A DNA stretch of 64,000 nucleotides from a virus (IMGVR_UViG_3300030376_004602:1-64000); one strand, 5' to 3'. Counted from the stretch's first letter, positions 2,905 through 39,226 are shown. The notes: generated by a model not told the origin, from the letters alone. Program-made: numbers and translations.

Positions 2905-2909
2905 ATGTT

Positions 2910-2918
2910 TAACTTTGT
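2910..2918 (+). promoter_or_regulatory. Bacteroidota primary-sigma -7 element TAACTTTGT
   Basis: Matches TAnnTTTG(Y), intergenic, about 20 nt before ATG 2938. Confidence 0.55.
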
Positions 2919-2937
2919 ACTTTAAAATAAATAGATA

Positions 2938-3393: not shown

Positions 3394-3403
3394 TACTTAA
3401 AAA

Positions 3404-3796: not shown

Positions 3797-3801
3797 TAGT
3801 T

Positions 3802-4482
3802 ATGAACACTGTACCAGTTGGATTTAATGGGGCAATTAGTCCTAAGCTACAAGCGTGTGTTTCACAAGACTGTAAGAATATTACATTCTCGGATGTAACT
3901 CTTCTTTCTAGTGTAACAAATCCGTATGGCTGGACTACAGACCTTGCTGAAACTCCTCGTCCTAGAATACTTACTGCATTTAGTGAGATTAGAATTATTG
4001 TAACTAATACTTCTGGTACTGAGGTTATTAACCAAGTTGTATTTGGAGGTACTCTTAATCTTTTTCCAGCTATCGCAGACTTTAATGATAATATGCCATT
4101 ATCTACAGCAGTCTGGGGTCTGGACGACGGAGTATACTCTATTAACTACAAGTTTACTTACGCAGAAGTTCCTAGTTCTATTGGAGATCCTGATGATGAT
4201 CTAGCTCTAGCTGGTAAAGTAGTAGAAGCAAAAATGAATCAGGTAATAACCTGTAATGCTCAGAACGAGGTAAAAGACCTTTGGCTTAAATACCTTAATG
4301 ACTGCTGCAGTGCAAACAGAGATAAAGCTCTAGAAGCAGAAGCTCTGTTGTTTTCTGTAGAAGCTGCAGCTGCATGCGCTGATGAGTATAATGCCTCCCG
4401 CATAAAAGAAGCACTTGATAAGATTTTACTATTAGATTCAGATAAGTGCAATGTTTGTAAACACTCAAAATGTAAATGTTAA
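3802..4482 (+). CDS. structural protein with Cys-rich C-terminus
   Basis: Position in the late operon; ends KCNVCKHSKCKC. Confidence 0.65.
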   Translation: MNTVPVGFNGAISPKLQACVSQDCKNITFSDVTLLSSVTNPYGWTTDLAETPRPRILTAFSEIRIIVTNTSGTEVINQVVFGGTLNLFPAIADFNDNMPLSTAVWGLDDGVYSINYKFTYAEVPSSIGDPDDDLALAGKVVEAKMNQVITCNAQNEVKDLWLKYLNDCCSANRDKALEAEALLFSVEAAAACADEYNASRIKEALDKILLLDSDKCNVCKHSKCKC

Positions 4483-4484
4483 TC

Positions 4485-16500: not shown

Positions 16501-17099
16501 CTTCTATAAATACAAGAATTGAACGTTTAAATGGTCAATTAACTAAACCTGCTTTTGAATCTACTAAAACCTTAGAACAATTAAAAAAAGCTTTTCCAGG
16601 AAAAACATCAACTGATGATATCATGGATTATATGTTAAAACATGATATTGATAATGTGAAATTAGACAATATTATAGACGAAGGATATGGTACAGAAGTT
16701 TTATTAAATAATAGACCTGGAAATAGAGTAAAGTCTACATTGGGTAATGTAGGATTTTTTGATATGACTAATCCTAATATCTATAAAGCTACAATCCCAG
16801 CAGTAGGGGGAGTTGCAGGATACGGCCTTCTACAAGACAGCCAGCCAGAAGGCTTTGCGTACGGAGGAGGACTACGTCGTTGGTTCAAAGAAAAATGGGT
16901 AGACGTTAAGACAGGTAAGCCATGTGGTAGATCAGGTAAAGAGAAATCAAAAAGAGCTTACCCATACTGCAGACCGTCAAGAAAAGTATCATCAAAAACT
17001 CCAGCTACTAGCAAGCACTCAGAGGCTAAGTCTAGAGCTAAACAAAAAACAGGGCCTGGTAGAGTAAAGCCTATCAGCCAACGTAAAAAGAAAAAGTAA
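13539..17099 (+). CDS. multidomain virion cargo (polyvalent) protein: basic Cys/His module, Gly-rich hydrophobic segments, two ART-like domains, basic C-terminal module
   Basis: YRG...LYTA...AAMYA...KSTLGNVGFFDMTNPNIY (ART-PolyVal-like); YNRVIDEGAVLDA..SG.IR...YAS; recurrent YxxGG; position between muzzle and vRNAP. Confidence 0.7.
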   Translation: MGCGCSKGSKQYGGIKRPPLSYKAGGKSPKASMSCGQVKRSSRPGKKIMKLYCMDGKKKLVHAGAKGYGHNYSSAARKSFKARHKCSTAKPGTAKHLACTELWAGKGGSKKSSPKGRKGKYAVGGPYLNIDPYNPLNESDFDSIYKGKGIGEMDLSDQAQRQIKRRQRGRNIGATAYGVLEGLVDTVTFGATDKLTDMGYEALAGTGRGQSAARRAQSDRYRVGVGQVIGATTGAILTGGAATGSAIATTDFGTLANEESQALQTGLNVAGTVAGVAVGNTSGLEGTGGAFGDTAVGDVSANLGKSSSFGGTGTGPENLLNEFAPNLKEGIDGFREFQELNPEGTLREFLQQNPEMFQKVVEALGIGSGTQVNKYGGPVSYKAGGRIPYQNGGPHNDGILHMGNAADYFNSASVYHENPRYNDLIRRRVYAGTHGYNPQTGALVKLDTPVKVDPATQAMATKEYTKATAGTRGGITDARTDAYVKSLPKDQREAVEDRFQEQRRQGVERELGKMYQNPITYAPAAIYSAGLAGPAIGALGTTARSLATAPLTIGSRTVPFINPTTLVGAGFGVKGAYNLGTDIDTGYYSNPNIPTSQKVERGAITALDVLSAPGMGNALLQTGKGAYNVGKTGLKNTYKINPFAEKLGRYNRVIDEGAVLDAQTSGVIRSKAPADKISGPGVVNLDRRGTTRYASFGDAPPIQEYADKVINRGGTPFVVSTNRPMQVSTLGRHGAGVTMFPVDKSGKFIEEFPASEAQIFEYQPHWLRGYKKVSGPKGEVKPFQSEINWADWNPDTPKYPELIKEYNAIEKSTKEAGTWMKNADGTPFQGQPEEFIQQQSSHFKKAFPKGFGTTYRGTGSNRPLLKQDLYTAEQENFAAMYAPGDLGVITGPGQKVGGTHKLYYPKSEKSAAINVQDQDWLNLTLNDLKSADDWKDQVRSNIRFQEKQLANRKEQLKKINKKIEETGDPNIGAGPSGATKRNILDLISSINTRIERLNGQLTKPAFESTKTLEQLKKAFPGKTSTDDIMDYMLKHDIDNVKLDNIIDEGYGTEVLLNNRPGNRVKSTLGNVGFFDMTNPNIYKATIPAVGGVAGYGLLQDSQPEGFAYGGGLRRWFKEKWVDVKTGKPCGRSGKEKSKRAYPYCRPSRKVSSKTPATSKHSEAKSRAKQKTGPGRVKPISQRKKKK

Positions 17100-22995: not shown

Positions 22996-23759
22996 AGCCT
23001 ACACCAGTCTCAGAGCCAGAACCAGAGCCTACTATACCAGAGGTGCCGGCTGTAGAAGAAGTAGTTATACCTGTAGAAGAAGCTATAGAAACAGCTGAAG
23101 AAGTAGTACAAGCAGTTCAAGAAGATTCAAACCCTGCAACTAATGAAGAAGTAGCAGCAGAAGTATTAGAAACTACTCCAGAGCTGCTTACTAATCCTAT
23201 ATCAGCTAGCCTTGACTTCTTAGGCATTACAGAAACAGATCCTACTCAGTATGATACAATAGCAAGCTTTTATCAGTCAGCCATTTCAGATACTACTCTC
23301 TTAGCAAAGACTAAGAAAAAACTTGCAACTGAAGTTGCCTGGTGCGCTGCTTTTGCTAACTATATTCTTAATGATGTAGGTATAGAAACTAAGCAAATGC
23401 TTGAAGATTATGATACTAAATATGCAAGAGTAAGGGCTAAAAACTTTATAGATTTAGGAACTCCTGTATATAACTCTTCTAAGAATACTAAAAAAGATTT
23501 GCAGTCTGCTAAGATTGGGAGCCTTGTAGTTAAAAAAGGAGAAGAGGGGTACCACGTAGGATTCTTTGCAGGTATCAATCCAGATAACGAGGATGAAGTT
23601 CTTATACTAGGCGGTAACCAAAACGATGAAGTAAATGTTACAACCTATCCTCTCAAGCAAATTGTAACTATAAACAGCTTAGAAAATGTTCAAGAAGCAG
23701 ACTCTAAGGTAGTTGAAAAAATCAGTAAAGATATTAAAGAAAGCGGCGCTACTAGATAA
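22959..23759 (+). CDS. NlpC/P60-like (TIGR02594-type) peptidoglycan hydrolase domain with E/P/T-rich linker; likely a frameshift extension of 19918..22962
   Basis: AWCAAF (Cys 23343), GYHVGFF (His 23553), LGGNQNDEV; no in-frame ATG before the catalytic Cys; the track start at 23043 is GTG. Confidence 0.8.
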   Translation, partial: LTAETEETTESAEPTPVSEPEPEPTIPEVPAVEEVVIPVEEAIETAEEVVQAVQEDSNPATNEEVAAEVLETTPELLTNPISASLDFLGITETDPTQYDTIASFYQSAISDTTLLAKTKKKLATEVAWCAAFANYILNDVGIETKQMLEDYDTKYARVRAKNFIDLGTPVYNSSKNTKKDLQSAKIGSLVVKKGEEGYHVGFFAGINPDNEDEVLILGGNQNDEVNVTTYPLKQIVTINSLENVQEADSKVVEKISKDIKESGATR

Positions 23760-23788: not shown

Positions 23789-26700
23789 ATGGCTAAGAAA
23801 AAAAAGACTCCTCCACCAATAACTTCTTTAGATAATAGCAGAGGGTACTCTGGCAGATTACATGCAGGAACCTTTTCAGGAGCTACTAGAGATGCTACAA
23901 GTCTTTTTGGAAATGCTGTATTTGCTGAAACTCTTAAGGGCCTTCAAGAAAATGCCGAGTCTAGATCTAATGACTATAAGATCCTTAGACAACAGGCTGC
24001 TAATGAACAAGGTGGATTTGAAAAGTTTGGAACTGCTTTAGTATCAGGAGTATCAAAAGGCCTTGTTAATGGTGTAAATGGAATTGTTTCTCTTGTACCC
24101 TACCCAGATGATGTATCTGCAGAAGGACTGCAAAACTGGAACTGGGATATTATGTCAGATGATTTTTCTGACAGATCTATGTTGTCTAATTATTTAGATG
24201 AAGGCTCTAAGGCTATAGGACTACAAATGCCTATATATGACGAAAATCCCTATAACTTCTATGCAGGTATGGACGCAGGTCTTACAAGTATTGGAGAGTT
24301 TGCTATTCCCGGTAAAATTATTAGTAAGGGAGTAGGTCTTGCTGCTAAAACAGTAGGAAGAGCACTTAGGGGAGTTGGTAGAGGTGTAAGAGGAGCTACT
24401 TCGTTAGGCAGAATGTCTACTAGATCTAGACTTGCAAAGTTTGGAGCTAGGACAGATGACTTTCTAACTAGGATGTCTATGAGTCCTAAAAATCAAGCTT
24501 TTCTACAAACCGGTGCTTCTGGTTTTGCTATGAATAGATTTGAGGGTACTGTTATGGGCCACCAGGTTTATGAAGAAACAATGCAAGAGCTAGCACCTGC
24601 AGTAGCAGCTGGCCAGCTTACAGAAGAAGAAGCTCAAAGCTATGCCAACCAAGCAGCATTATCTGTAAGAAATAAGAATGCTGGAATGATGATGACCGAC
24701 ATGTTTGCTATGTATGGCATCTTTAAGGCTAAAGGTATGACTAGGAATCTTCTTACTAAACCTGGTTTTACTTCTGCTGTTAAAAATAATCTTCTTAGTG
24801 CAAAAGCTTGGAATCCTCTTAAGAAAGCTGCAGCTACTAATCCTTTTTATCAAGCACTAGTAGAAGGTGGAGAAGAGATTATTCAAAGTAATATTCAAAA
24901 GCAATCTCAATATGATGCTTTAAAAGGAGCTGAAGCTTTAGCAGCATCTAGAGTAGGTAAAGAAGAAGAACTTGTATATGTTCCTGACTCAGACTCTTAC
25001 TACGAAAGATTAAAAGATAATCTATTTAGTAAGGATGCTGCTTTTGAAGGCGCTATTGGGTTCTTTTCCGGTCCTATACAAAGTGTTGCCCTTGAGCAAG
25101 GTATGGGCATAAAGCCTCTACTAGATAATCGTAAGTATAAAAATTACACTAAGGAAATTAATGCTCTGCAACAGAGTATTAAACCTGGAGGATCTGTAAC
25201 AGGATTAGCAAAAAAATTAAAAGTCCAGGAGCAGATTGAAGACCTTAAACTAAAGCGAGCACAAGAAACATCTAAAGGAGCATACGAAGAGCAGCAAAGA
25301 GTTATAGGCGAAGTTAAAGCTGATGTTAAAAATGCTCTGAAAGAAACTGTAAACATGGAGGACCTTATAGAAGAGGTTCAGGAAAAAGGAGTTGAAGGGG
25401 TAGAAGAGTTGCTAGAAGGAACTGCATTTGTAAATACTGCAGTAAAACATTTTCAGAATGGTACTACAGAAAATCTAGAACGTATGTTAAAAGACCTTGC
25501 AGAAGGCAAGGGAGACCCAGCTACGTTTGGAGAAAACACTCAGCAGAAAGCAGCTGATCTTTTAACTGAAATGTTAGAAATGGAGAAGCAATGGCTGCGT
25601 TACCATGACTTTGAAAACAAAGCATCTATTTTTGCAGCAATTCAGAATGAAAAAGAGATTGATAAAGCTATTAATCGTACACAGTCTCAGAAAGAAAATG
25701 CTCAAGCTAAAATTCTTACTCAGCTAAACGAGTATGCGCCTAGTAATAACTATGGTTTTGATGAGAATGGTAACCTTACTATTACCCCAAAGTCTGAAGA
25801 AGAGAAAAAGTTAGACGATGACCTACCCGGTCAACAAACATCTTTGTTTCCAACAAACGATGAAGTCCGTGCATTTTATGAAAGAATGCCAGAAAAAAAG
25901 GAACTGGATGAGGTTAACCAAACTCAAAACACTTTTAGAGAGGTTAAAGGCGAAGTATCAAAGTTCCTCAATAATATTGCTTCAGGCAAAGGACAGAGAG
26001 CTGCTAAGAAGCTTAGAAAGCAAAGAGAAAAAGCTGCAAGAAGAGCTGCAAAAAGAATTATGGCTACTAATAAGGTTGAGGCTGGAGAAAAAACTAAAGC
26101 CAAAACTAATTCTGAAAAGTCTGCTATATCTAACGCTCAAGCTAAGGTAAATTCTGACTCTAAGATTGTAGTAAAAAAAGTAAAGCCTAAGGCTCCTACA
26201 GCCCCACCGCCGCCTACTTCTGCTGAAAAGAAGTCAAAAGAAGAAAAAGAAATAGAAAAAGGGAAAGCTGCAGAAACAAACAGGAGAACTACTGCTAAAA
26301 ATGGCGAACCTCTAAAATCAGTTTTTGCAAAGGCAATAGCAAAAGCTGCAGCAAAGTCTAAAGAAAAAGAGCCTGTAAATGATGATAGTGCTTCCGAGGG
26401 GGAAAATTTTACAAAGTCTACAGAAAATAAATCTTCTCATATTCAAGGTAGAACAGACGGTGTTACTAATGATTCTGAAAATGCTTTCTGGACTCTTTCT
26501 GATCCTAGTCTTACAGCTGAAGGAGATGTAATAACTTTTCAGGTAGAGGACCAAAATATTGGGGCTGCAAATGACCCGACTAGCCCTACAAGAGGTCTTA
26601 AAGTAATTGATGTAAAAGGTCGTAAAAAAGAAATAGCAAAGCACGAAAACTCTACGTACGGATCTAATATTTCTGAGGACCAAGCTGCAGATGATGCCGA

Positions 26701-29700
26701 GGCTATTGCTATTTATAATGAAAGAGGCGACAGAATAGGGTATGTGGGATCTCCATTAGCTATTTCTTCTAAAAGAAGAAATATGACTACGGAAGAGATG
26801 CTAGAGGAAAAAGAAAACCTTCGTACAATAAGAGCTCAGATCCTATCTAAAACTCGTAATGGAGAAGCTGCAAAAGGTAAGATTAACTCTATAACCAAAC
26901 AGTATACTAACTTCAAAGAGGAAGGGTCTCCAGACTCAAGATCCATAGACGTATTTGGAACAGATGTTATTATTGGTGTTGCTACTGCAGAGGGAGTTAC
27001 ATTTGAGGGAGGCTCTAATAACCTTACTCAAGCTGCAGGCTCAAAAATAGAAGCTAAAATGGAGGACTCTGAAAGACTAGACGACCTTACACCAGGTCTT
27101 CCTTATGCTTTTGTCCCTGTTAGAAAAGATAACAAAGGAGCCATCTACTATGAGGCATTCCCCCTATTACCTCAGGATCTAAATGCAGGTTTTATTAATA
27201 CAGTTATCTATGCCCTAAAGTCTTGGGCAGGCGGTATCGATGCTAATATTGATAAACAAAATAGAGACGAGGCTTCAGCAACATTAGGGCTTAATCTTAA
27301 AAAGAATACTAAACTTCGCAGCTTGTCTATGCTGTTAGAAAGATTCTTTTTACCACGTACAGAACATCCTTACGTAGCAGATGATGAGACTAGAACTTAT
27401 ATCTATTTAAACCAATCTAATTCAGAAAATGAAGTAATTGAGCTTGTTGAAAATGTTGGAGGACAGCAGTTCGTAAGAGGGACAATTAGAAGAGGGGAAC
27501 AGTTAACTGAGGATACTATTGCTACCTTAGAACAGTTTCTTGCCAATGAGCAGGTACAGATTGACCTAAGAAATATTGATGGAATACCTTACATCATTAC
27601 AGACCGTGATGGTAATGTAAAAGAGTCAATCGAGTTGGCCGACTTTAAAACCCACGTTCTAAAGAATACTACTACAGGTCTTAATCCTGTGGAGTCTGTA
27701 CTTAACGCTACAGGCCGTACTATTTTTTATAAATCTCCTAAAGTTACCTTTTCTGTAGAGAGTGATAGATCTTTAGATACCTCAGCACCTGAAAATGAAC
27801 AGGAAGAAGAAAAGCCGCCATGGGATACTTCTAAAGAAAGTGACCTAACTATAGAGCAAATATCTAAACTACCATTTGTAGAAAGAATACCAGCCCTTAT
27901 TAAAGCAGGTATAATTGCATCTGATGTAACATATAACGTAGGTAAAAGATTTCCTATAATAGTAAATATTGGAGGAGTAAAAGTAGGATTCTACAGAAGC
28001 TCTGAAGGAACAGGAGGTAAGAAAAAAGGTGCTTGGACACCTATGTTTGGATACGGCGAGGATGGAGGTAATCCTTGGTTAATTAAAGGAAATATTGCTA
28101 CACAAGTAAATGTTAACTATGGCAGCAGTGCTATACAAGAGTATGCGGATATACTTAACAAAACTCTTAATTGGGACCTTAGTATAGATAAAGGACAAGT
28201 AAAAGATCACCCTTTTTATAAAGAACTTAGACTAGTTGAGAGCACGCAAGCATTTAACAAGGAGTTATATGGGGTGGAAAATCTAGGTATTATTAATGGT
28301 GAAACAGATGTTAGCGGTTTTATTAATTCTAAAGTACAAGAGATTAACGCCGCTACAGGTAAACCTTCATACGATGAGGCCGATCAAGTAGATCCTGATA
28401 TCCTAAGCGACCTAGAAACAGACGATGATTTGCCATCTTCATCCGAAGACTCTTTTATCCGAGGTATTGAAAAAGAGGAATATACGGAAGAAGAGAGGAA
28501 TGAATTAGAAGACATTATTTCAAGGTATGTTAAAGATCCAGAGGACGGTTATGATGCAGTAATATACTTTACCCAAGGGACTACACCCCCTGGACGCGGA
28601 ATAGAGGACTTTTTATCTGTTGAAGCTAATCTTAATAGAGACCCCCTCTATAAAAAATGGCAGGAAAAACATACTGAACGTATAAAAAAAGAATCAACTA
28701 GGGATACAGCTCCAGATGTTGACGATTTAGTAGGAGACGCTGTACCACCTGAAGTAAAAGAAGAGCACAATAAACGACATATTAAAGGCCTTACTCCTAC
28801 TCAAAACTTTGAGATAGTAGGGCACTTGGCTAATACTATGTTCAGAAAGCTAGTAGAGCTTACTACTGATCAAAGAGTTAAGAAAGTATCTAGAAATAAA
28901 CTATATCAAGAAGCGCTAGAAGAAACTATGGCTTCTTTTGATAAATATATTGCAAGACTAGAAAAAAACTTAGCCAGAAAGCAAGCTCAAGAAAACGAGG
29001 CTTTAAAGAATAAGATGGAGGCTAGAATAGCAGGTCTTAAAAAGTACAAGCAGGCTGTAGAAAACGAAGCTGCAAAGACTAAAGAGCTTGCTACTCAGAA
29101 GCTTAATCAGTTTGAGGGTGTTAAGGGCCAAAGGTCTGAAGAGGATTTAGAAAATATAGAAGAGACTGCACACGAAAGAAGAAACTTTAGCGAGGACTTT
29201 TTCTTGACTGTAGACAGTAAGAAGAGCACATCTAAAGCTCTAAGAAAGTTCCTAAGCAGCATACCTTTAATCAAGACTAAGACTCAGACTATTAAGAAGG
29301 GCGATGATAACATTACTGTGTCTAGTAAAGCTATGCCTGCCCGTACTACATTTGGTGCTCCAAAGTATGCAGACTTTGATTCTGTGTATAATAAACTACA
29401 CTCTCTTGAAGTAGGATCAGATGCTAATTTATCTAACCAACTTACTAAGCTAGCACAGCTGTACGTAGACTATCCAGGTATGAAGCAGGAGCTCAACTGG
29501 CTACCAGGTCTAATAGTAAGTCTAGGAATAGATAACTTGCAAGGCACTAAGAAAAATAATAGAGGAGAAGAAAAAACCCTAGCAGATGTATTTTTGGAAG
29601 AAGCTTTAGGGCCAGACGATGCTGACCTTAGTAATCTAGTTAAGCTTATGGCTTCTACTGACTTTGGAGTTCCGGCAGGAGAAAAAATCCAAAGACAGTT

Positions 29701-32700
29701 TGCTATTAATATGTCTAAGGCTAAGGTAAAGGCTCCACTAGTTCTTTATCGTGCTGTACAAAAAGGAGGCAAAATTAAGTTTGAGGTAAACCTTACAGAC
29801 CATAATAATACTGATAACTCTAAGCAGATCATAAATGAAATGCAGGAAGGCTTCCTAAATAAGCTGTATACATATAATCCTGAAACAGAAGAGTACGAGC
29901 CAGATGAGACTGCTTTCGAGAGAGCTATTCAGCTTTTAGAAAGCTACAAGAAGACTCCTCCAACCCAGAAAAATAGTGATAACTACAAGGACCTTAGAAA
30001 GCAACTACAAGAGGTCCTAGGTATATCCATCTCTACTCAAACTTTCCATACTCTTGCTACAAAAGGATATAGACTTGGAAGGCGTAAAGTTCTTCTTAAT
30101 AGAAAAAATAAGAACGTATTTAGTATTGACGGGGCTCCATTTAGAGTGTTATTAGACGCTCTTAAGAGTTCTAAAGGCAAGCCATTCAACCCTGAGGTAA
30201 ATGTCTTTACAGATAATGCTATTAAGAATCTAGCACAGATGGAATCTCTATCTCAGACAGCTACTCTTAGTAATGCTTTCCGTGTAGGCGATAAGACTAT
30301 CTATACATATACAGAGCATAACTATGCTACCTCTCAGATTCAGACTATTCTAACTGATCCAAAGTATAGAGAGCAGCTACAGAACACTGTCTTTGCAGGT
30401 GAAAGTCTTTGGCTACACATGATGTCTCCTATGGGAGGACAAGTCCTAGAGATAGACGGAGATGTTGATGCTGGTTCTAGTATTGAACTAGGTATTCTAA
30501 ACTTCCGCCCTGTCAAAGAAAGAAAGGAATCTAACCTAACTACTGATGACCTAGATGGTCAGAATATGGACGATAACCTCTTTACAAGGTTGGCTCTATT
30601 TACTGCAAATGCTAGTGCTAGTAGAAAGTCTATTGTAAAAAAGGACGAAAACAACAAAAATATTTACTCTTTTAAAAGCCGTAAAAGCACTACTGTACCT
30701 CTTGCTTACTCTGATAAACATTCAGTACTAACAGTAACAACAGCAATGCCTGTCTTTACTATTGGTAAGGGGGACGGGGTTACCTCGGATACCATTAATA
30801 TTTTTTACGAACATGTATTGATGGCAGAGATCTCTCGTATTCAAAATATGTTTGATATCGATGGAACTAACGATGCTGCATATGATGCCGGTAAGTCTGC
30901 TTTCCACCTAATGCCTGAGATGAATACTACTACGGTAAAAGATAGAGGTGGAGAAACAGACACTGTTGCAAACTATGCTGCTAGAGGAGCTTTTGATCCA
31001 ACATCTGTTAATTATGATGAAAAGGTTGTAGGAGCAACAAAGAGAGCACTGGGAGATCAACTTAATGTTCTTATTAATGAGCAGATAGAAGACTTTGCAA
31101 AAGCAGGTATTAACCAAGTAGCAGGAAAGAGTGAGGCTACTTTTGTATCTAGCGAGTACATCAAGATGCTAAAAGCCCAGCATAAAAATGCAGGAGTAAA
31201 ATTAGAAGGAAATAAGATTACTAAAGCTGTAGCTGCTGATTATGTGCTTAATCATATGCTGTCTACTGCAAACATGTTCCAAATGTTTGTAAAAGATCCA
31301 GCACTGTATACTAAAACAGATGGTGAAGGAAATGTAGACGCTGCTTCTACCTTAGAAAATATTCAGAAAAGACTTGCTGCAGTCATTGCACCAGGTACTG
31401 CTACTGCTATAGAAGAAGGTAATGATGCATATGTACAACTCTTTGCTAATGATGTTAAGTATTCTGAGTTCTTAGGAGAAGGAATTAAGGAGTACTTCAA
31501 AGGCATTAAGAATAAAAAGCACAGAGAGTCTTACAAGGGCGCTGAGATTACCGATGGTCAGGAGTTAATTACCTACCAGGAGTATCTAGGCACAATGGTT
31601 AGCCAAGGTCAGATTACAAAAGCAGAAAGAGCTCAGATAGAAGCTGTCGTAAAAGATCCAAATAAAAAGATTCCAGAGTGGATGATGGACGTTCTTTTTG
31701 GTGCAGAAAAACCAGTTGCTGTAGCTGATAAGTTCGTCACACTTAAAGATGGTCAGAGAATAGAAAAACGTGTCTATGTTAAAAGCTCGGGTCTACCTTT
31801 AATTCCTAAATTTACTAAAGGTACAGAGCTAGAAAATCTTAGAAAAGCTTTAGAACAAATACAAGAAAAAAGCGGTCTTCCGGTTAGACTTGCATTTAGT
31901 TCAGCAGTAAAAGTAGGATTGCCTGAAACTGCTAAAAACACTAATATCCAATATACAGAAAAGGATATAGAATCTCTAAAAGAGGAACTACCTGAAGGAC
32001 TATCTGCTGAAAGAAGGAATGAAGAAGAAGAAAAACTAGATGCTTTACTAGGTACTATTAAGCCTGTTAAGGAACTAGTGTCTATGTTTAATGGAGACCT
32101 TACAGAAAAAGAACTTAATAGTGATGAGGCTTTCTTAGAAGATGAATCTCTTCGACCTCCTAGGCAGATTCTACAACGTAAGTATTGGAGAATCCAGCAA
32201 GCTACTCCTAACAAGAATAAAGACATAGCTACTAGAGGTACTCAGGAGTCTAAGATTATTCTGTCTGAAGTAAAAGAAGCTTTTGGAGAAGAAGCAGGTA
32301 CTAAGCTTATTGAAGATTGGAACAGCCTACATAGTAAACTATTTGGTCTTCGTATTCACGAACTAGAAAGAGAGATTCTAAACCCAGACGGGTCTATAGA
32401 CAGAAAGGCCTTAGCTGAGTTCCTAGACAGAGATGCTAATGAAGGAGGAGTTAGTGTCAATACTAGATATGGATTAGAGGTAGATCAAAACGGAAAGTTC
32501 GTTATACCTCTGGATCTATCCGCTGGTACATTAGAATATCAAACTCTTATTAATGCTATAGCTAATAAGAGGATTGCTCAGAAGAAAGTAAAAGGACAGT
32601 CTACTGTATTAATGACTGAGTTTGGCTTCTCTATTAGAGAGGGCCAAGATCTATCAGACAGTGGTATTGTTTGGACTCAAGGGTTTGATTTTCAACATGG

Positions 32701-35700
32701 TAAGCTTAAGCCTGCTAGAGTAGAAAACGGAGTTGTTAAGCCTGCTCAGGTTATCGTGCCTAACAAGTTCTTTGTAAACGGTAAGAGGGTAAATCTTAAA
32801 AAGTACATTATCAAAGGTGAGCAAGGCCAGATGATTCTGGATACTAATCGTATGCCTGCTGAAATACTAAAAGGGTTTGGATTCCGTATTCCTACTCAAG
32901 GGTATAACTCTATGGCAGGTATTGAGATCGTAGGTTTCTTGCCAGAATCTATGGGAGACGTTGTCGTAGCCCCAGGTTCATTTGTAAACCAAATGGGATC
33001 TGACTTTGATATTGATAAAATGTTTAACTACTTCTATAAGCTAGAAAGAAGTACAATATCTCGAAGAGCGGTTACGGATGCAACTATTGCAATTAGTGAC
33101 GAAATAGCGGCAATAGAGTCTGGTAAGTCTAGCCTAGAAGACTTTAAGAAAAGAGGAGATAGTGAAGAAAATTACCAAGCTTATTTAGAAGATATTAATG
33201 ATCAGATAAAGTCTTTAGAAGAAGAGCTACAAAATCTGAAAAGTAAGAGTACTACTTTTGTAAAAGTAACAGCGGATGATTTAAAAGATAAACCTTTTAA
33301 TGAGCTTACTGAAAAGGAGATTGCTAGACTAGAAGATGCCTTGCTTAATGAAGGTCTCGACATGAGACTAAAGATTATGGGCAAGAATGAAATCTACCAG
33401 ACTATGTCTGCGCCTCTTGACTTTGGTCTATTAAAGTATAAAGACGAAGAAGGAAACGATACAGGTCTTAAGTTCTACTTTAAGGATAAGAGGATGTCTA
33501 CTAGAGCATCTAGCCGTAACCCTCTTGCACCTGGATATCATACACAGAAGTATCAAGATGCTAGGGGAGCAGGAGCAGGAGTTGGTGTATTTGCTAGAGG
33601 TATTACCTTCCAGTCAATGGCTCAATCAGGTGTAGATGTAATTCCAGGAGCTGACTTTAAGCTTGGTAGATTTAAGTCAAATAACATTACTGACTCAAAA
33701 ACTGTTACTAATAATAAACGCTCTAAGATAGAAGTCCTTACAGCATTCTTATCTGCCTCTCTTGATAATGAAAAAGAGCAGATCATGAACTACCTAAATA
33801 TTAATGATGATACTTTTAGTACAGCTACAGCTATGATTCACTCTGGCTTTGAGGAGGATCTTGTTTTGGCATTCTTGGAAAGTCCTGTTTTAAGACTACT
33901 AGCAGAAAATAAAAGATCAAGAACTAAAAAAACTCAGATAGCCTCATTTTCAATATTTAATAGGCTGGTATTAGACTTAGTGCCAAAAGATTATAAAAAC
34001 CTGACCGAAAAAGAAAAGGAAGAAGAAAGAGAAAAAATAATAGACGAGGCACGTAAAGAGCTAGCAGGCTCTTCTTTTGAAACTAAAGAAGAAACTTTTA
34101 ACAGGTTAATCCAAAACTCTGATGTTACTTTAAAATATACTCCTCCTAAGATAGGAGTAAGTAGTGCTAAAATACAGTTCTTAAATGAGGAAGGGAAGCC
34201 TTTAGAAAAAGATGAATTAAAAAGAGCAAAACTTTTAGCTATTGGGTCGCTAGATTTAACAGGACAATTCAAAGATATATCAACGGATATACTTGCAGCA
34301 CAAAGACTACTAAATGTAGATTCAGGAGGACTTGGTAAAAATGCTTATGAAGCGTATTCAAAACTAGAAGACTATATAGGCTTAGCAGATTTACAATTTG
34401 GAATATCGTTTCCTCACCCTATTTTTAAAGCTCTTATAGGAGAGCACAGGACTCTGGTTTATCCTGCAAAGATGGAAGGACAAGAAGAAGTAAATGCTGA
34501 AGAACTTGCAGAATATTTAACAAACGAAACTGAGCTAATAAATCAAGGCTTCATTAGGATAGCAAAAGCTCCAGGTAATACAGACGTATACTTTTTAAAA
34601 CCAGTTTCAACTCCAGCTACTATTTTTGCAGAGTCTATGGGGCTTACATCTCGTATATACGAGGATACAATGCCTGTATTAGTTGACTATGTTTTAAATA
34701 ATGTAGACCTATCCTATCCAGCAATTCCTAAAAGTCTTCGAAATCAGTTTCGTGCAGACAAAAAGGCTAAGATTGTACATGATACTCTTAGATCCATTCT
34801 ATTCTCTTCTACCGAAAACTGGATATCTGGTCAGTTTGAAGAGGCTACGGGACTAAGTACTCAGCCAACACAGCAAACTAGTGATACAATAAATATATAT
34901 GCAGGAACAAATGAGAATGCTGAGTTAAGTAATTTTGCTAACAGACCTGTAATGGATCCGTTAGGGGCTGAGTTCAAAAATGTAGAAGCAGCATTTCAAT
35001 ATGCTAAAACAAATTTTGCAGACGGAGACAATGAGTCTATCAAAATGAAACTCCAAAATGCTACTGGTGCACAAGCTAAGGCATTAGGTAGAAAGATTAA
35101 AGGTTTAGATGTAAAAGCTTGGGATGAAAACTCTGCAGCTATAATGAAGGGCCTCATAAAGGACTCTTTTGAGCAAAATCCTAAAGCTCTTGAAAAGCTA
35201 TTAGCTACAGGTAATGCTACATTAACTCATACACAAGATAAGACTAAGTACCGCGAATTGTTTCCTAAACTATTAATGGAAGTAAGACAGGAGTTAGGCG
35301 GTTCTCAATCAACAGCCTCAAGCCTGGTGCAGATTCGTAGAGCACTTATGTATGGAGATAACACTCTAGCACTGCGGGTTAAGGAAGCTATTAAAGATCG
35401 TAGACTTTCTAAGAACCCATTCCTAAAGTCTCTAGTTCTATCTACTAAAGCAGGCGAACGTCATAAGGTGACCTTTGCAAACTTTACTCCTGATGGTATG
35501 ATGGATGAGGACAAAGCAGATGCATTTGCTCAACTCTTTCTTATGCCTGACCAGAGTCCAATAGAGGGATTAAAACTAACTCCCGCACAGCTAGGAGCTC
35601 TTCTTGTAACTTACTCTATGGTAACAGGAGGTAACCAAAAGGCTCTGGAGTTTGTTAGGTTTGTTCCTAACTCTTATCTAGTAGGAACAGGTTTCTATAA

Positions 35701-38700
35701 AGCTATCAATGATAAGCTTACTGAAACTTTATCAACTCGTTCTGGAAAAACAAATCTTAGTATGTCTATTATGTCGCAGCTTGTTCAACACAATCCTACG
35801 TTAACTTATAGAAAGAAAAGAACTCAAACAATTAAGAAAATAGAAGGGTCAGATAACTTTACTATTTCTGGTTTAAAAGTAGAAGGATCAAAAAGTTTAG
35901 GCACCTTAAGAGCTGTTGATAAAAGCCAAAGGGTACCAGAAACCGTTCCCTTTTTACATACTATTTCTAAAAAAGGAAACATTTCCTTGTATTACTTTGA
36001 TGAAGATCTTAACACTCCTGGTAATAAAGCTATATATACTAAAATTGATGTTTTAGGAGATGGAGGAGACTTAAACGAGTTTTCTGCAGGTCTAATTAAT
36101 GCCCAGTCACAAAATGCATTTGGTATTTCTGTTGTACCGTCTAATAAAAAGGCATACGTAGAGGAGTCTCTTCAGCAAGAGGAAACTTCTGAGCCAGATG
36201 CTAAAGGAAAAATAGACTTAGAATCTCTTATACAGAAAGTAGTAAATAAAACAGTAGAAAAAGTAATCAAAGTAAATACAGAGCCTGGAGTTAAGGTATC
36301 AAGAAAACTAGAGTTAAATTCAAATGGAGAAAGTGATCCTATAAAAACTATAGAAGCAGTCGCTACAGGCTCTGACAGTCCTATGTTTAGACAACTTGCT
36401 GCGGCATTCTTAACTAGAAAAGACGATCTTAAAAATATAACGTTTAAAACCAAAGCTCTTAAAGATGGTAAAGATGCTGGAGGATCTTATACTTATGATA
36501 GCAAAACTATAGAGCTAAGCTACTCTAACGACAAGTTATATAATGAATATGCTATCCTTCATGAGTTTGGACATGCTTTGACTAAAGATGCTATAGTAGC
36601 ATTTGAAAAGGGGGGTACCTACCCTAATGCTAAGGTTAAGCAGGCAATGAAAAATATTGCCGAAGTTCAGAATCTATATGTTCAATACCTAGAAGCACTA
36701 AATCCTGTAGAGCTTGAGGCTTTCAAGAAAAAGTATGATGAGTATAGGAGAAGAAAGGGACTAAGCGGTAAAGATAGAGCTAAACTACCTCCTCTAGACT
36801 TTAGTAATAAAAAAGAACTAGGTAAGTACTACGGAGGTCTTAAGCTATCGGAGTTTGTTACTATGGTACTATCTGATGAGGTATTGCAAGCAGAGCTTGA
36901 TAAAGTAATGCCTACGTTAGAAGGAGCAGCTGCTGCATCTGAAAAGAGTTTGTTTAGAGAACTACTAGATGCTATTAAAGAAATTCTTGAAGGTCTTACA
37001 GGAGTTAGCCTGTCTAAGTATACTGTCGAGCAAGCAATGACTATTGTCACTCAAGGTATGGATACAAAAGTTCAAGGTAATCCTGGGTCTACTGCATCTA
37101 CAGATACTACTAATGATAGTGCTAAAGAATTTGCTAAAAAGTTTGCGCCTAAGATAAATCTTAAAATAAAGGGAGATAAGAATAAAGATTTATTACCAGG
37201 AAGTGAAGCCTCTAATGTGTTTGACTCTAATCCTAAACTAGCCAATCAAGTATATGGAGCTTTAGGACTTACTGTTGTGAACGAGTCTTCTACTAACATA
37301 GCTTCTACAATTTATGAGTTGATCCCAGATATTACAGAAAGCAAAATTGATGAAATATATAATAACTATGTTTCACTAATAGGAAAAGCCAGAAAGGATA
37401 AAGAAATATCTAAAGATGCTTTCAAAAAATTATTGAGAAAGTACCAAGTCTTTAACTACAAGGATACCTACATATTTGGGCAGTATGATATGGACAATGG
37501 GCTATTTGTAACTAGAATAAACTCATCTCCTACTTCTAAAGAGCTACTAGCTGAAGCTTTACCTACATTAGTAAAGCAAGGGATTGATTTTGCATCGTTT
37601 GTGCCTAAGGATGTAGCTCAGAAATATAAGAGAAGTGGGTACTCTCTAAGTAAAGAAGGTTTTGCCTATAACTTTAAGGGGGAAGATATGGTTAAATACC
37701 TAGCTGTTTCTAATCCAAACATATCTCTAAAAGTCTTTGGTAAAACTTTAGAAGAAATCTCTGCTAAAGAAATAAAAGACTTTAGCAAGGATCAGACACT
37801 AAGCTATAAACCAGTGGAGATAAAAGGAGAGCTAATAGAAAAGGCAGGTAATGATTTATCTAAGATACTAGAAACATACCTTAATCAATTTGGTATAGTA
37901 GTAAAGGATGTAAGTACTATAAAAAATGCTCTAAATATTGATGAATTAGGATTTGCTGATATCTTGTCTAAAGTTGCTTATGTAGAAAACAACAAGGATC
38001 TTCCTCCTATTGCAGGAGAGTTTATTGCCTACATGATGCAGTATAACCCTCTAGTATCTGAGATAATAAAAGAGCTATCACAAACAGAAAACTATAAAAA
38101 ATTAGACAAGTCAGAGTATTTTAAAATTGTAGGAGGATTAATCTCTGATGATCTACAAAATAAACTAGATGAAAATTATTCTCAGTCTTTACTACAAAAG
38201 TTAAAGCAGTTAATACAAGAGTTTTTCAGCCTACTAAGAGGTACTCGTATAGATTTAATAAACAAGAATGTAGGTATCATTTCTAACAATATTCTACAAC
38301 AAAATAAAAAGCTAATTACAGCTTCTTTGTATAAGCCTGGAGCTTATGGAAAGCCTACTAAACAAGTTAGTTTAAAAGAGGCAATGGCTTCTGATAAATT
38401 TGGTTCTTCTATCATCAACAAGTTAGCTAAGGAAGGCTTTATATTAACAGGTTCTACCTCTCTAGGAGAACAAGGTACTATACAAAGACCAGATGAAAAT
38501 CTACTGCATGATATTGACTGGGTAAGTCCTTTTAATAGAGAAAAGACTGCTGAAAAGTTTTTAAAACAGTATCCAGATGCTATAAAAATTAGAGACATAC
38601 AAGGAGATAGTTTTGTTACAGATACTTGGATTATATCCCCTGAAGGATATAGTATAAAAAATCTAAACAAACAATCTGATTACAATATAATTACTTCTTA

Positions 38701-39226
38701 CGATGTTGTTGATAACAAAGGAAATATTGCAGGTACATACAGACTAGAAAAAAAGGCTAAACAAAAAAGAAAAGAAGAAGTTGTATCAGGAGTTGAAGCT
38801 AAAGTTATAGACTTCTTCTCTTATGATGACTTCAATCAATTAACGCCTTTTGTAAAAGATAATGTGGAGCTTGCTAATTGGAAAGAAATTTTTAAAGCCA
38901 AGCTGCAGTTTGGAAGATATAAAGATATTTGGGACTTCAATAGATTTATACCTAATGAAAATCTTTCTGAAATAACTCCACAACAAAAGCAAATAGCTCA
39001 ACAAAGATATTCTGACTATGTAGCTCAGACTGGGAAACAAGATATAGAAGGGTTTAAAGACTTTGTCAGAGAACCAGCCCAGCAAAGAGATAGTTTACCA
39101 ACTTCAAATACTGTAGATTTGGGGGTAGATATAGTAGATTTCTTAAAACAACTAAGCCCAGAAGAGCGTAAGTTCTATAACAAGCTATTCCAAGAAGGAC
39201 AGTTCACAGTAAAATGTAGAAAATAA
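23789..39226 (+). CDS. virion-packaged two-barrel RNA polymerase of crAss-like phages, fused to accessory effector domains (5145 aa)
   Basis: FRIPTQGYNSM (RIP at 32885) and GSDFDIDK (DFDID 33002-33016); size and position between cargo genes. Confidence 0.92.
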   Translation: MAKKKKTPPPITSLDNSRGYSGRLHAGTFSGATRDATSLFGNAVFAETLKGLQENAESRSNDYKILRQQAANEQGGFEKFGTALVSGVSKGLVNGVNGIVSLVPYPDDVSAEGLQNWNWDIMSDDFSDRSMLSNYLDEGSKAIGLQMPIYDENPYNFYAGMDAGLTSIGEFAIPGKIISKGVGLAAKTVGRALRGVGRGVRGATSLGRMSTRSRLAKFGARTDDFLTRMSMSPKNQAFLQTGASGFAMNRFEGTVMGHQVYEETMQELAPAVAAGQLTEEEAQSYANQAALSVRNKNAGMMMTDMFAMYGIFKAKGMTRNLLTKPGFTSAVKNNLLSAKAWNPLKKAAATNPFYQALVEGGEEIIQSNIQKQSQYDALKGAEALAASRVGKEEELVYVPDSDSYYERLKDNLFSKDAAFEGAIGFFSGPIQSVALEQGMGIKPLLDNRKYKNYTKEINALQQSIKPGGSVTGLAKKLKVQEQIEDLKLKRAQETSKGAYEEQQRVIGEVKADVKNALKETVNMEDLIEEVQEKGVEGVEELLEGTAFVNTAVKHFQNGTTENLERMLKDLAEGKGDPATFGENTQQKAADLLTEMLEMEKQWLRYHDFENKASIFAAIQNEKEIDKAINRTQSQKENAQAKILTQLNEYAPSNNYGFDENGNLTITPKSEEEKKLDDDLPGQQTSLFPTNDEVRAFYERMPEKKELDEVNQTQNTFREVKGEVSKFLNNIASGKGQRAAKKLRKQREKAARRAAKRIMATNKVEAGEKTKAKTNSEKSAISNAQAKVNSDSKIVVKKVKPKAPTAPPPPTSAEKKSKEEKEIEKGKAAETNRRTTAKNGEPLKSVFAKAIAKAAAKSKEKEPVNDDSASEGENFTKSTENKSSHIQGRTDGVTNDSENAFWTLSDPSLTAEGDVITFQVEDQNIGAANDPTSPTRGLKVIDVKGRKKEIAKHENSTYGSNISEDQAADDAEAIAIYNERGDRIGYVGSPLAISSKRRNMTTEEMLEEKENLRTIRAQILSKTRNGEAAKGKINSITKQYTNFKEEGSPDSRSIDVFGTDVIIGVATAEGVTFEGGSNNLTQAAGSKIEAKMEDSERLDDLTPGLPYAFVPVRKDNKGAIYYEAFPLLPQDLNAGFINTVIYALKSWAGGIDANIDKQNRDEASATLGLNLKKNTKLRSLSMLLERFFLPRTEHPYVADDETRTYIYLNQSNSENEVIELVENVGGQQFVRGTIRRGEQLTEDTIATLEQFLANEQVQIDLRNIDGIPYIITDRDGNVKESIELADFKTHVLKNTTTGLNPVESVLNATGRTIFYKSPKVTFSVESDRSLDTSAPENEQEEEKPPWDTSKESDLTIEQISKLPFVERIPALIKAGIIASDVTYNVGKRFPIIVNIGGVKVGFYRSSEGTGGKKKGAWTPMFGYGEDGGNPWLIKGNIATQVNVNYGSSAIQEYADILNKTLNWDLSIDKGQVKDHPFYKELRLVESTQAFNKELYGVENLGIINGETDVSGFINSKVQEINAATGKPSYDEADQVDPDILSDLETDDDLPSSSEDSFIRGIEKEEYTEEERNELEDIISRYVKDPEDGYDAVIYFTQGTTPPGRGIEDFLSVEANLNRDPLYKKWQEKHTERIKKESTRDTAPDVDDLVGDAVPPEVKEEHNKRHIKGLTPTQNFEIVGHLANTMFRKLVELTTDQRVKKVSRNKLYQEALEETMASFDKYIARLEKNLARKQAQENEALKNKMEARIAGLKKYKQAVENEAAKTKELATQKLNQFEGVKGQRSEEDLENIEETAHERRNFSEDFFLTVDSKKSTSKALRKFLSSIPLIKTKTQTIKKGDDNITVSSKAMPARTTFGAPKYADFDSVYNKLHSLEVGSDANLSNQLTKLAQLYVDYPGMKQELNWLPGLIVSLGIDNLQGTKKNNRGEEKTLADVFLEEALGPDDADLSNLVKLMASTDFGVPAGEKIQRQFAINMSKAKVKAPLVLYRAVQKGGKIKFEVNLTDHNNTDNSKQIINEMQEGFLNKLYTYNPETEEYEPDETAFERAIQLLESYKKTPPTQKNSDNYKDLRKQLQEVLGISISTQTFHTLATKGYRLGRRKVLLNRKNKNVFSIDGAPFRVLLDALKSSKGKPFNPEVNVFTDNAIKNLAQMESLSQTATLSNAFRVGDKTIYTYTEHNYATSQIQTILTDPKYREQLQNTVFAGESLWLHMMSPMGGQVLEIDGDVDAGSSIELGILNFRPVKERKESNLTTDDLDGQNMDDNLFTRLALFTANASASRKSIVKKDENNKNIYSFKSRKSTTVPLAYSDKHSVLTVTTAMPVFTIGKGDGVTSDTINIFYEHVLMAEISRIQNMFDIDGTNDAAYDAGKSAFHLMPEMNTTTVKDRGGETDTVANYAARGAFDPTSVNYDEKVVGATKRALGDQLNVLINEQIEDFAKAGINQVAGKSEATFVSSEYIKMLKAQHKNAGVKLEGNKITKAVAADYVLNHMLSTANMFQMFVKDPALYTKTDGEGNVDAASTLENIQKRLAAVIAPGTATAIEEGNDAYVQLFANDVKYSEFLGEGIKEYFKGIKNKKHRESYKGAEITDGQELITYQEYLGTMVSQGQITKAERAQIEAVVKDPNKKIPEWMMDVLFGAEKPVAVADKFVTLKDGQRIEKRVYVKSSGLPLIPKFTKGTELENLRKALEQIQEKSGLPVRLAFSSAVKVGLPETAKNTNIQYTEKDIESLKEELPEGLSAERRNEEEEKLDALLGTIKPVKELVSMFNGDLTEKELNSDEAFLEDESLRPPRQILQRKYWRIQQATPNKNKDIATRGTQESKIILSEVKEAFGEEAGTKLIEDWNSLHSKLFGLRIHELEREILNPDGSIDRKALAEFLDRDANEGGVSVNTRYGLEVDQNGKFVIPLDLSAGTLEYQTLINAIANKRIAQKKVKGQSTVLMTEFGFSIREGQDLSDSGIVWTQGFDFQHGKLKPARVENGVVKPAQVIVPNKFFVNGKRVNLKKYIIKGEQGQMILDTNRMPAEILKGFGFRIPTQGYNSMAGIEIVGFLPESMGDVVVAPGSFVNQMGSDFDIDKMFNYFYKLERSTISRRAVTDATIAISDEIAAIESGKSSLEDFKKRGDSEENYQAYLEDINDQIKSLEEELQNLKSKSTTFVKVTADDLKDKPFNELTEKEIARLEDALLNEGLDMRLKIMGKNEIYQTMSAPLDFGLLKYKDEEGNDTGLKFYFKDKRMSTRASSRNPLAPGYHTQKYQDARGAGAGVGVFARGITFQSMAQSGVDVIPGADFKLGRFKSNNITDSKTVTNNKRSKIEVLTAFLSASLDNEKEQIMNYLNINDDTFSTATAMIHSGFEEDLVLAFLESPVLRLLAENKRSRTKKTQIASFSIFNRLVLDLVPKDYKNLTEKEKEEEREKIIDEARKELAGSSFETKEETFNRLIQNSDVTLKYTPPKIGVSSAKIQFLNEEGKPLEKDELKRAKLLAIGSLDLTGQFKDISTDILAAQRLLNVDSGGLGKNAYEAYSKLEDYIGLADLQFGISFPHPIFKALIGEHRTLVYPAKMEGQEEVNAEELAEYLTNETELINQGFIRIAKAPGNTDVYFLKPVSTPATIFAESMGLTSRIYEDTMPVLVDYVLNNVDLSYPAIPKSLRNQFRADKKAKIVHDTLRSILFSSTENWISGQFEEATGLSTQPTQQTSDTINIYAGTNENAELSNFANRPVMDPLGAEFKNVEAAFQYAKTNFADGDNESIKMKLQNATGAQAKALGRKIKGLDVKAWDENSAAIMKGLIKDSFEQNPKALEKLLATGNATLTHTQDKTKYRELFPKLLMEVRQELGGSQSTASSLVQIRRALMYGDNTLALRVKEAIKDRRLSKNPFLKSLVLSTKAGERHKVTFANFTPDGMMDEDKADAFAQLFLMPDQSPIEGLKLTPAQLGALLVTYSMVTGGNQKALEFVRFVPNSYLVGTGFYKAINDKLTETLSTRSGKTNLSMSIMSQLVQHNPTLTYRKKRTQTIKKIEGSDNFTISGLKVEGSKSLGTLRAVDKSQRVPETVPFLHTISKKGNISLYYFDEDLNTPGNKAIYTKIDVLGDGGDLNEFSAGLINAQSQNAFGISVVPSNKKAYVEESLQQEETSEPDAKGKIDLESLIQKVVNKTVEKVIKVNTEPGVKVSRKLELNSNGESDPIKTIEAVATGSDSPMFRQLAAAFLTRKDDLKNITFKTKALKDGKDAGGSYTYDSKTIELSYSNDKLYNEYAILHEFGHALTKDAIVAFEKGGTYPNAKVKQAMKNIAEVQNLYVQYLEALNPVELEAFKKKYDEYRRRKGLSGKDRAKLPPLDFSNKKELGKYYGGLKLSEFVTMVLSDEVLQAELDKVMPTLEGAAAASEKSLFRELLDAIKEILEGLTGVSLSKYTVEQAMTIVTQGMDTKVQGNPGSTASTDTTNDSAKEFAKKFAPKINLKIKGDKNKDLLPGSEASNVFDSNPKLANQVYGALGLTVVNESSTNIASTIYELIPDITESKIDEIYNNYVSLIGKARKDKEISKDAFKKLLRKYQVFNYKDTYIFGQYDMDNGLFVTRINSSPTSKELLAEALPTLVKQGIDFASFVPKDVAQKYKRSGYSLSKEGFAYNFKGEDMVKYLAVSNPNISLKVFGKTLEEISAKEIKDFSKDQTLSYKPVEIKGELIEKAGNDLSKILETYLNQFGIVVKDVSTIKNALNIDELGFADILSKVAYVENNKDLPPIAGEFIAYMMQYNPLVSEIIKELSQTENYKKLDKSEYFKIVGGLISDDLQNKLDENYSQSLLQKLKQLIQEFFSLLRGTRIDLINKNVGIISNNILQQNKKLITASLYKPGAYGKPTKQVSLKEAMASDKFGSSIINKLAKEGFILTGSTSLGEQGTIQRPDENLLHDIDWVSPFNREKTAEKFLKQYPDAIKIRDIQGDSFVTDTWIISPEGYSIKNLNKQSDYNIITSYDVVDNKGNIAGTYRLEKKAKQKRKEEVVSGVEAKVIDFFSYDDFNQLTPFVKDNVELANWKEIFKAKLQFGRYKDIWDFNRFIPNENLSEITPQQKQIAQQRYSDYVAQTGKQDIEGFKDFVREPAQQRDSLPTSNTVDLGVDIVDFLKQLSPEERKFYNKLFQEGQFTVKCRK
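34886..35300 (+). other. NADAR (YbiA/DUF1768) domain inserted in the vRNAP
   Basis: LSNF...FKNVEAAFQYAK...AKALGRKI...W...IM...FEQNP...LLATG...LTHTQD...LLMEVR; flanked by S/T/Q linkers. Confidence 0.85.
36338..37048 (+). other. zincin-like metallopeptidase domain in the vRNAP
   Basis: AGGSY...ILHEFGHAL (HExxH 36560-36574), downstream LSEFV as third-ligand motif. Confidence 0.8.
37438..37717 (+). other. GNAT-like domain in the vRNAP C-terminal region
   Basis: FVPKDVAQKYKRSGY resembles the GNAT C-terminal motif (A..Y.r.GF/Y) after a beta-helix-beta pattern. Confidence 0.4.
38380..38950 (+). other. Pol-beta-superfamily nucleotidyltransferase domain in the vRNAP C-terminal region
   Basis: LTGSTSL (GS 38450), HDID (38507-38518), VIDFF, and AK....RYKD.WD. 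Confidence 0.7.

Follow-up and report, generated by a model that had tools for sequence, protein, structure and literature searches.

Why would an RNA polymerase (RNAP) that probably enters the host along with phage DNA carry, within its own chain, a domain of the NADAR family, whose members remove ADP-ribose (ADPr) from nucleobases? The question is raised by IMGVR_UViG_3300030376_004602:1-64000, a 64,000-nt stretch of viral DNA (hereafter the window) that is part of an 83-kb IMG/VR virus record. A single open reading frame (ORF) in the window encodes a 5145-aa virion RNA polymerase (vRNAP) polyprotein of the crAss-like type, and an original prediction, made from the sequence alone, placed a NADAR domain inside it. 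The domain is indeed there. It is also one copy of a widespread, laterally moving cassette and not a one-off fusion, a point that the first reading had missed. The features that carry the argument are these (P and L numbers denote homologous proteins and loci, respectively):

23789..39226, plus strand: vRNAP polyprotein, 5145 aa in one ORF, in which counterparts of phi14:2 gp67, gp66 and the N-terminal part of gp65 are fused, plus accessory modules.
33002..33016, plus strand: DFDID catalytic motif of the two-barrel RNAP (aa 3072-3076), equivalent to gp66 1361-DFDID-1365.
34856..35302, plus strand: inserted cassette (aa 3690-3838), made up of the N-terminal linker STQPTQQTS and a NADAR domain ending ...RQELGG; absent in relatives P0122-P0125.
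34913..35239, plus strand: NADAR core (Pfam envelope), identified by PF08719 and by an AlphaFold2 (AF2) model searched with Foldseek.

Identity and fold of the NADAR domain

The stretch is confirmed as a true NADAR domain with the alpha+beta NADAR fold. The Pfam profile for NADAR (PF08719), which the original prediction had proposed as a check, has a gathering cut-off of 35.1 bits; it scored 54.9 bits (E = 1.6e-14) on a 200-aa translation around the site and 52.6 bits in a genome-wide scan. An AF2 model of the domain, built from 21 clade members, had a predicted local distance difference test (pLDDT) of 88.2 and a predicted template modelling score (pTM) of 0.83. When this model was compared with the PDB using Foldseek, the only significant matches (E < 0.001) were 8bau (E = 3e-7) and 2b3w (E = 6e-6), both NADARs, with template modelling (TM) scores of 0.74-0.76. 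The third-ranked match, 8bat, is also a NADAR but was marginal (E = 0.049, TM 0.52), and all remaining matches had E > 2. The quoted motifs were all located (VEAAFQ at aa 3732, THTQD at 3813, DKTKY at 3817), as were the low-complexity linkers said to bound the domain, with STQPTQQTS at aa 3690 (nt 34856) and SQSTAS at aa 3839 (nt 35303) on its two borders.

The sequence matches to solved structures were likewise the Phytophthora NADAR (8bau) and E. coli YbiA (2b3w), with profile scores of 61 bits for YbiA and 51 bits for the eukaryotic NADAR. Similarity to T4 gp30.3 is remote (86% by hhalign; 18 bits for Pfam Phage_30_3, PF08010, against a cut-off of 36). Judged by sequence, the domain as a whole thus appears nearer to YbiA and the eukaryotic NADARs than to T4 gp30.3. 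Its last strand, however, carries a His as in T4.

The carrier protein

The plus-strand block of the window carries crassvirus hallmark genes, including a muzzle protein (PF25731, 498 bits) and a cargo-protein-1 domain, and the giant ORF sits 3' of the muzzle and cargo genes. Over aa 1357-1526 it is 59% identical to phi14:2 gp67, and over aa 2121-3373 it is 24% identical to phi14:2 gp66, whose structure (PDB 6vr4) it matches with E = 4.8e-29. A profile of the window protein and its close relatives was aligned by hhalign to gp66 residues 1591-2113 (91%) and then to gp65 residues 35-360 (92.5%), with an HEFGH motif lying within the latter stretch. The protein combines homology to the two-barrel core of gp66 with a DFDxD motif having Ile or Val at position 4, the hallmarks of the crAss-like vRNAP family; this core has 3293 homologous protein clusters. 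Residues 1361-1365 of gp66, the DFDID motif, are necessary for activity (bioRxiv 10.1101/2020.03.07.982082). In the window the motif begins at aa 3072, 618 aa ahead of the cassette linker, close to the distance of about 630 aa given originally.

Both gp66 and gp67 of phi14:2 are annotated as virion proteins by mass spectrometry. Moreover, gp66 enters the host along with the DNA and strongly prefers single-stranded DNA (ssDNA) templates over duplex (bioRxiv 10.1101/2020.03.07.982082). Given these homologues, and a gene position after the muzzle and cargo genes, the 5145-aa protein is probably packaged and injected too.

The window resembles phi14:2 (PDB 6vr4; Drobysheva et al.) in its DFDID motif, in homology to gp66 over aa ~2121-4124 of the window protein, and in its gene neighbourhood (gp67-gp66-gp65, with muzzle and cargo genes upstream). 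It differs in that gp66 is a 2180-aa protein without NADAR, whereas the window joins gp67, gp66 and part of gp65 in one chain, with a NADAR at about gp66 residue 1872 and a second variable slot further on. Because gp65 homology lies inside the giant chain and is a separate protein in phi14:2, the fusion boundary varies among phages.

Insertion into the polymerase

NADAR-free relatives were found by searching with the 356 aa that follow the domain, and four of them (P0122-P0125) are closer full-length proteins. None of the four has a NADAR, and the BLAST alignment of each runs unbroken across the site. Identity to the window protein is 79% before the site and 71% after it for P0122, 54-58% for P0123 and P0124, and 32-40% for P0125. 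In the relatives the junction reads ...FEEAMGL and then SDGTFSSPVQIRE; in the window it reads ...FEEATGL, followed by 149 additional residues (linker and NADAR) and then SQSTASSLVQIRR. At the DNA level, where the empty site was taken from L040, a global MAFFT alignment misaligned the filled and empty sites, and the junction was read by eye from its output and from the protein alignment; the 3' boundary of the cassette is uncertain by 1-2 codons. On gp66 (2180 residues) the site maps to about residue 1872, within a gapped loop of the C-terminal, non-catalytic portion. By these alignments the NADAR is a genuine in-frame insertion inside the gp66-homologous region, and the earlier claim that it had been inserted into a virion polymerase holds: the uninterrupted relatives are contiguous across the site and the carrier is of the gp66 type.

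Recent lateral transfer and selection

Window positions 34862-35308 are 92.6% identical in DNA to a stretch of locus L004, and the surrounding 2.2 kb is otherwise without a match. The NADAR of L004 lies about 1150 codons upstream of its RNAP catalytic region, which shares just 24.6% protein identity with the window's. The two cassettes have diverged by 0.225 at synonymous sites, with a ratio of nonsynonymous to synonymous divergence (dN/dS) of 0.19. Such high DNA identity at another position in an RNAP of about 25% identity, together with the low synonymous divergence, marks a recent lateral transfer, and the dN/dS value shows purifying selection on the domain since then. Across the giant homologues, identity to the window protein is 50-82% in the NADAR and 24-51% in the RNAP core, and the remaining sequence cannot be aligned.

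One further copy (L010:10001-10470), a near-duplicate of the L007 cassette, switches frame at about 10100-10180, which points to a decaying copy with a frameshift or else to a sequencing error.

Active site and subfamily

The residues expected to matter for catalysis are as follows, with equivalences taken from alignments to 8bau and YbiA.

34985..34987, plus strand: Glu3733, within VEAAFQ and invariant across the clade (21/21 members); its counterparts are catalytic E43 (P. nicotianae) and E88 (E. coli C7).
35006..35008, plus strand: Lys3740, equivalent to phosphate-binding K50/K95; invariant in the 21-member clade alignment.
35225..35230, plus strand: Thr3813-His3814 in the last strand, the position that defines NADAR subfamilies; both invariant in the clade alignment.

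The equivalents of the first two (E43/K50 and E88/K95) are needed for ADP-ribosyl-guanine hydrolysis (Schuller et al., PMC11543638). The last-strand residue is Glu in YbiA, Asp in DarT1-linked NADARs and His in phage gp30.3. At the position of the YbiA Glu (E125 in P. nicotianae) the window clade has the invariant Thr3813, so that LTH stands where YbiA has VEH. The same Thr occupies the Asp position of the DarT1-associated (BC4488/DarG1) type; an Asp does occur four residues on, and it is not invariant. His3814 aligns with the His of T4 gp30.3/AdfN (LKH) and, in YbiA, with the His directly after the signature Glu (VEH). By its defining residue, the domain would thus be neither YbiA-type nor DarG1-type, and it appears T4-like at this position and closer to YbiA overall.

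The original prediction had been right that THTQD and DKTKY are present. Its account of the last motif requires two corrections: the 'D..WG' that it took as usual is, in this clade, a consensus of LTHTQDKxKWG, and the invariant element is the Thr-His pair and not the Asp. KYR replaces KWG in the window copy and in L007, which is a conservative aromatic change.

Distribution among crAss-like phages

At least 358 protein clusters of 2829-9004 aa carry the window's type of NADAR, and so do at least 354 clusters of shorter proteins that are mostly fragments or mid-size multidomain proteins. Domain tallies for the giant homologues cover 120 listed proteins out of these at least 358 clusters. A DFDxD motif is present in 106 of the 120; the NADAR lies downstream of it in about 82 of these and precedes it in about 24, and the offsets range from -2800 to +1900 residues. 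Among the 150 nearest cluster representatives of the RNAP core (of 3293 clusters), only two have a NADAR. The distribution is patchy and accessory-like.

Published Crassvirales genomes include three carriers. In cr126_1 the NADAR is N-terminal in a 2402-aa 'DUF1768 domain-containing protein' adjoining an RNAP subunit gene, in cr130_1 it is part of a 5801-aa protein, and cr131_1 has one too. The JGI database uses YbiA labels on homologues.

Several side observations concern individual groups of carriers. The NADAR-coding stretches of L025-L030 (e.g. L025:9971-10477, L026:9971-10450 and L029:9971-10486) have three to five in-frame TAG codons where others have Gln; they translate cleanly with TAG read as Gln, pointing to NADAR-bearing crAss-like phages that recode a stop codon. 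Many of the giant RNAP proteins (P0008, P0018, P0027, P0036, P0046, P0057, P0090) end in a C-terminal NADAR followed by a tail of 22-27 aa with a single Cys. A profile scan of genome contigs returned five NADAR-bearing crAss-like contigs (L035-L039) in metagenome-assembled genomes labelled Pseudomonadales, Dehalococcoidia, Clostridia, Bacilli and Saccharibacteria; these are almost certainly mis-binned phage contigs and give no host clue. A fusion to N4-like vRNAPs in Dinoroseobacter and Roseovarius phages was considered and rejected: the NADAR matches there are short annotated proteins, unfused and encoded close to the left genome end.

Companion domains and linkers

In 10 homologues the NADAR lies directly beside an AlkB-type dioxygenase, in both orders. 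AlkB repairs damaged bases in single-stranded nucleic acid. Longer arrays are found in P0029 (NADAR-cpYpsA SLOG-AlkB) and P0300 (NADAR-DUF7831-cpYpsA), and P0119 is another homologue with its NADAR among arrays of the SLOG/DUF7831 type. An ADP-ribosyltransferase (ART) domain, ART-PolyVal (PF18760), was identified in 8 of the 120 listed giants (confirmed in P0019), and helicase domains of the RecD/Pif1 type in about 18.

Linkers rich in Gln, Thr and Pro, of the TQPTQQTS type, concentrate at the domain borders: 39 of 57 motif matches fall at NADAR borders, which make up ~3% of the sequence. In P0029 a cpYpsA SLOG (aa 3036-3216) sits between NADAR and AlkB with a QPVVNTTN linker on each side, and P0024 has a single QPVVNTTN (aa 4444-4455) where P0029 has linker-SLOG-linker. 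The doubled linker in the one and the single linker in the other suggest recombination within linker-coding DNA, a mechanism we infer from the pattern.

It is conceivable, although we would not yet count it as probable, that crAss-like phages exchange in-frame domain cassettes generally within their injected RNAP polyproteins. The cassettes would comprise NADAR, AlkB, cpYpsA-SLOG, DUF7831, ART-PolyVal and helicase domains, each bounded by conserved Gln/Thr/Pro-rich linkers of the TQPTQQTS type, and would move between positions and between distant phages by recombination in linker DNA that sometimes leaves a linker duplicated.

Predicted function and alternatives

We lean, guardedly, towards reading the injected NADAR as a pre-delivered eraser of base-linked ADPr on phage nucleic acid, directed against DarT1-like defences. 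A mobile cassette of about 450 nt entered, in frame, a surface linker in the non-catalytic C-terminal part of the RNAP. As homologues of the carrier are packaged and translocated with the DNA, the NADAR would reach the cell ahead of all phage gene expression. Working beside a polymerase that transcribes ssDNA, it would strip ADPr from guanine (possibly cytosine) in single-stranded phage DNA or nascent RNA. DarT1-like DNA ADP-ribosyltransferase defences would be neutralised in this way, by a pre-delivered and tethered version of the AdfN counter-defence. The target of DarT1 is guanine in ssDNA.

All catalytically competent NADARs tested, whether DarT1-linked, sigma70-linked, YbiA, T4 or eukaryotic, hydrolyse ADPr-guanine DNA in vitro (PMC11543638, PMC11125620). 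Removal of cytidine-linked ADPr has been shown for some NADARs (PMC12945103). In vivo, three independently acquired phage NADARs, named AdfN, defeat DarTG1 (Johannesman et al. 2025, PMC11825919). No DarT was found in the 83-kb phage record, in a search that is weakly validated since 14 control genomes gave no signal either; on this result the NADAR would be an orphan eraser. Taken with the known activities of NADARs and of gp66, the purifying selection, the patchy distribution and the pairing with AlkB, this makes a role against ADPr-modified bases the most likely one. The original prediction of an eraser tethered to the transcribing enzyme is supported in part, for its fold, its catalytic residues, its insertion and its type of carrier.

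Three points weigh against it. In the E. coli C7 NADAR, mutation shows that the acidic last-strand residue (Glu in YbiA, Asp in the DarT1-linked type) is essential, and the clade instead has Thr followed by His. YbiA and T4 gp30.3 alone failed to rescue DarT1 toxicity in E. coli (PMC11125620), so activity in vitro is no guarantee of protection. Finally, the NADARs of homologues are often fused to cpYpsA-SLOG and DUF7831, and such contexts have been read as a sign of soluble ADP-ribose-derivative substrates (Iyer et al. 2022, PMC9503650).

This last point leads to the strongest of the alternatives, one that we consider unlikely, in which the substrates of the injected NADAR are soluble compounds derived from ADP-ribose (immune signals, toxins or by-products of RNA repair), and ligand-binding SLOG neighbours work together with it. 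Iyer et al. (PMC9503650) proposed such substrates for phage NADARs, the arrays in P0029, P0300 and P0119 would suit them, and cpYpsA occupies another slot in NADAR-less relatives of the window protein. Yet Pfam detects no SLOG in the window's own protein, no NADAR is so far known to act on an immune signal, and biochemical tests have all found base-linked ADPr on nucleic acids (PMC11543638, PMC11125620, PMC12945103). Adjacency to AlkB and fusion to an RNAP that reads ssDNA also fit a nucleic-acid substrate better.

A role in self-immunity, with the NADAR protecting phage DNA, RNA or proteins from an ART that the phage itself injects, is improbable. Pairs of this kind are known as toxin-antitoxin systems (DarT1-NADAR and YarT-YbiA; PMC11125620), and in the 8 listed homologues with ART-PolyVal, ART and NADAR share one giant protein, so that self-immunity is possible in those phages. 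The other 112 of the 120 have no detected ART, and in the window the idea is unsupported. Pfam found no ART in its 1186-aa cargo protein (up to E = 10) or in the 5145-aa protein, a phmmer comparison of the cargo proteins with 125 giant homologues and phi14:2 gp65-67 was also null, and the weakly validated search of the record for DarT was negative. We rejected a phage-encoded ART partner on these results.

That the domain is a passenger without an enzymatic role (a structural spacer or decaying insert) or a YbiA-like metabolic N-glycosidase is very improbable: the missing YbiA signature Glu, the change of WG to YR in the window's last motif and the frameshifted L010 copy would fit, but the dN/dS of 0.19 against the L004 copy, catalytic residues invariant over 21 divergent copies and a domain 50-80% conserved in carriers that are down to 25% identical do not, and a glycosidase of riboflavin intermediates has no obvious reason to be in a virion protein.

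Other features of the window

Two further features of the giant ORF lie beyond the cassette.

36560..36574, plus strand: zincin-like HEFGH motif (aa 4258-4262) of a candidate processing peptidase, within the part that resembles gp65; kept in P0122-P0125.
37121..39088, plus strand: second variable slot (aa ~4445-5100, ~650 aa), absent in P0122 and replaced by a cpYpsA SLOG in P0123 and P0124.

Pfam Peptidase_M78 scored only 15 bits, below threshold, against the HEFGH region, whose surroundings align to the N-terminus of phi14:2 gp65, a separate 'RNA polymerase associated protein'. If it is a peptidase, it might release the NADAR from the chain. Within the second slot, aa 4744-5059 are common to P0013, P0121 and P0124, and conservation resumes after it in the last ~45 aa of the protein. 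Neither PHROGs nor Pfam gave a match for the next ORF or for the 356 aa that follow the NADAR insert. Elsewhere in the window, the 1186-aa cargo protein (13539-17099) has a C-terminal DUF5872 domain (41.8 bits), and a 238-aa ORF immediately upstream of the giant gene (23043-23759) has a weak, sub-threshold CHAP-like match.

Relation to known systems and significance

The closest functional precedents are the AdfN proteins (T4 gp30.3, AdfN-Bas32 and AdfN-Bas60; PMC11825919), which are also orphan phage NADARs without a cognate DarT and come from independent acquisitions, as the window NADAR appears to do; the T4 member shares the His-type last strand. AdfN proteins are free-standing and made after infection, whereas the window NADAR is fused in frame into an RNAP that, by homology, would be delivered with the virion, and it moves as a cassette. 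YbiA and eukaryotic-type NADARs (2b3w, 8bau) give the best sequence and structure matches and share the Glu and Lys of the ADP-ribose site. They differ from the window clade in their signature last-strand Glu, which is an invariant Thr here, and in standing alone and not embedded in a 5145-aa protein. The DarG1-type NADAR, which has a conserved extra Lys (K115 of C7), is an operon partner of DarT1, unlike the NADAR in the window record, where no DarT was detected, and its structure 8bat matches with a TM score of only 0.52.

The giant protein also recalls the polyvalent proteins (Iyer et al. 2017, PMC5512222; 2022, PMC9503650), giant multidomain proteins of the virion module that combine counter-defence enzymes. 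Such proteins join several unrelated effector domains to a processing peptidase; the window protein has an RNAP, a NADAR and variable slots, and its conserved HEFGH motif marks a candidate peptidase with a sub-threshold family match. Virion packaging of NADARs was predicted there in general terms (Iyer et al., PMC9503650). Neither paper mentions crAss-like phages or describes the RNAP fusion, its cassette-like transfer or the NADAR-AlkB pairing, and the 2017 paper has neither NADAR nor AlkB. Counter-defence by phage NADARs, the prediction of virion-packaged NADARs, polyvalent proteins and the crAss-like vRNAP were thus already known. In the searchable literature we found no description of a NADAR in crAss-like vRNAPs, of its transfer as a cassette or of its pairing with AlkB, although database labels such as 'DUF1768 domain-containing protein' exist.

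Phage NADARs have recently been shown to defeat DarTG1 only as free proteins made after infection. If the injected NADAR is the eraser we propose, it would act ahead of the first phage gene expression, exactly when DarT-type defences strike. The design is common, with more than 700 protein clusters in Crassvirales-like phages, which predominate among human gut viruses and are also plentiful in the sea. The sharply bounded, transferred cassette is a tangible example of a virion-protein domain that moves in frame, and it offers natural pairs with and without the domain for experiments. Should cassette exchange prove general, the polymerase would be an evolvable delivery rack of pre-made counter-defence enzymes, of which NADAR would be the commonest ADP-ribose eraser.

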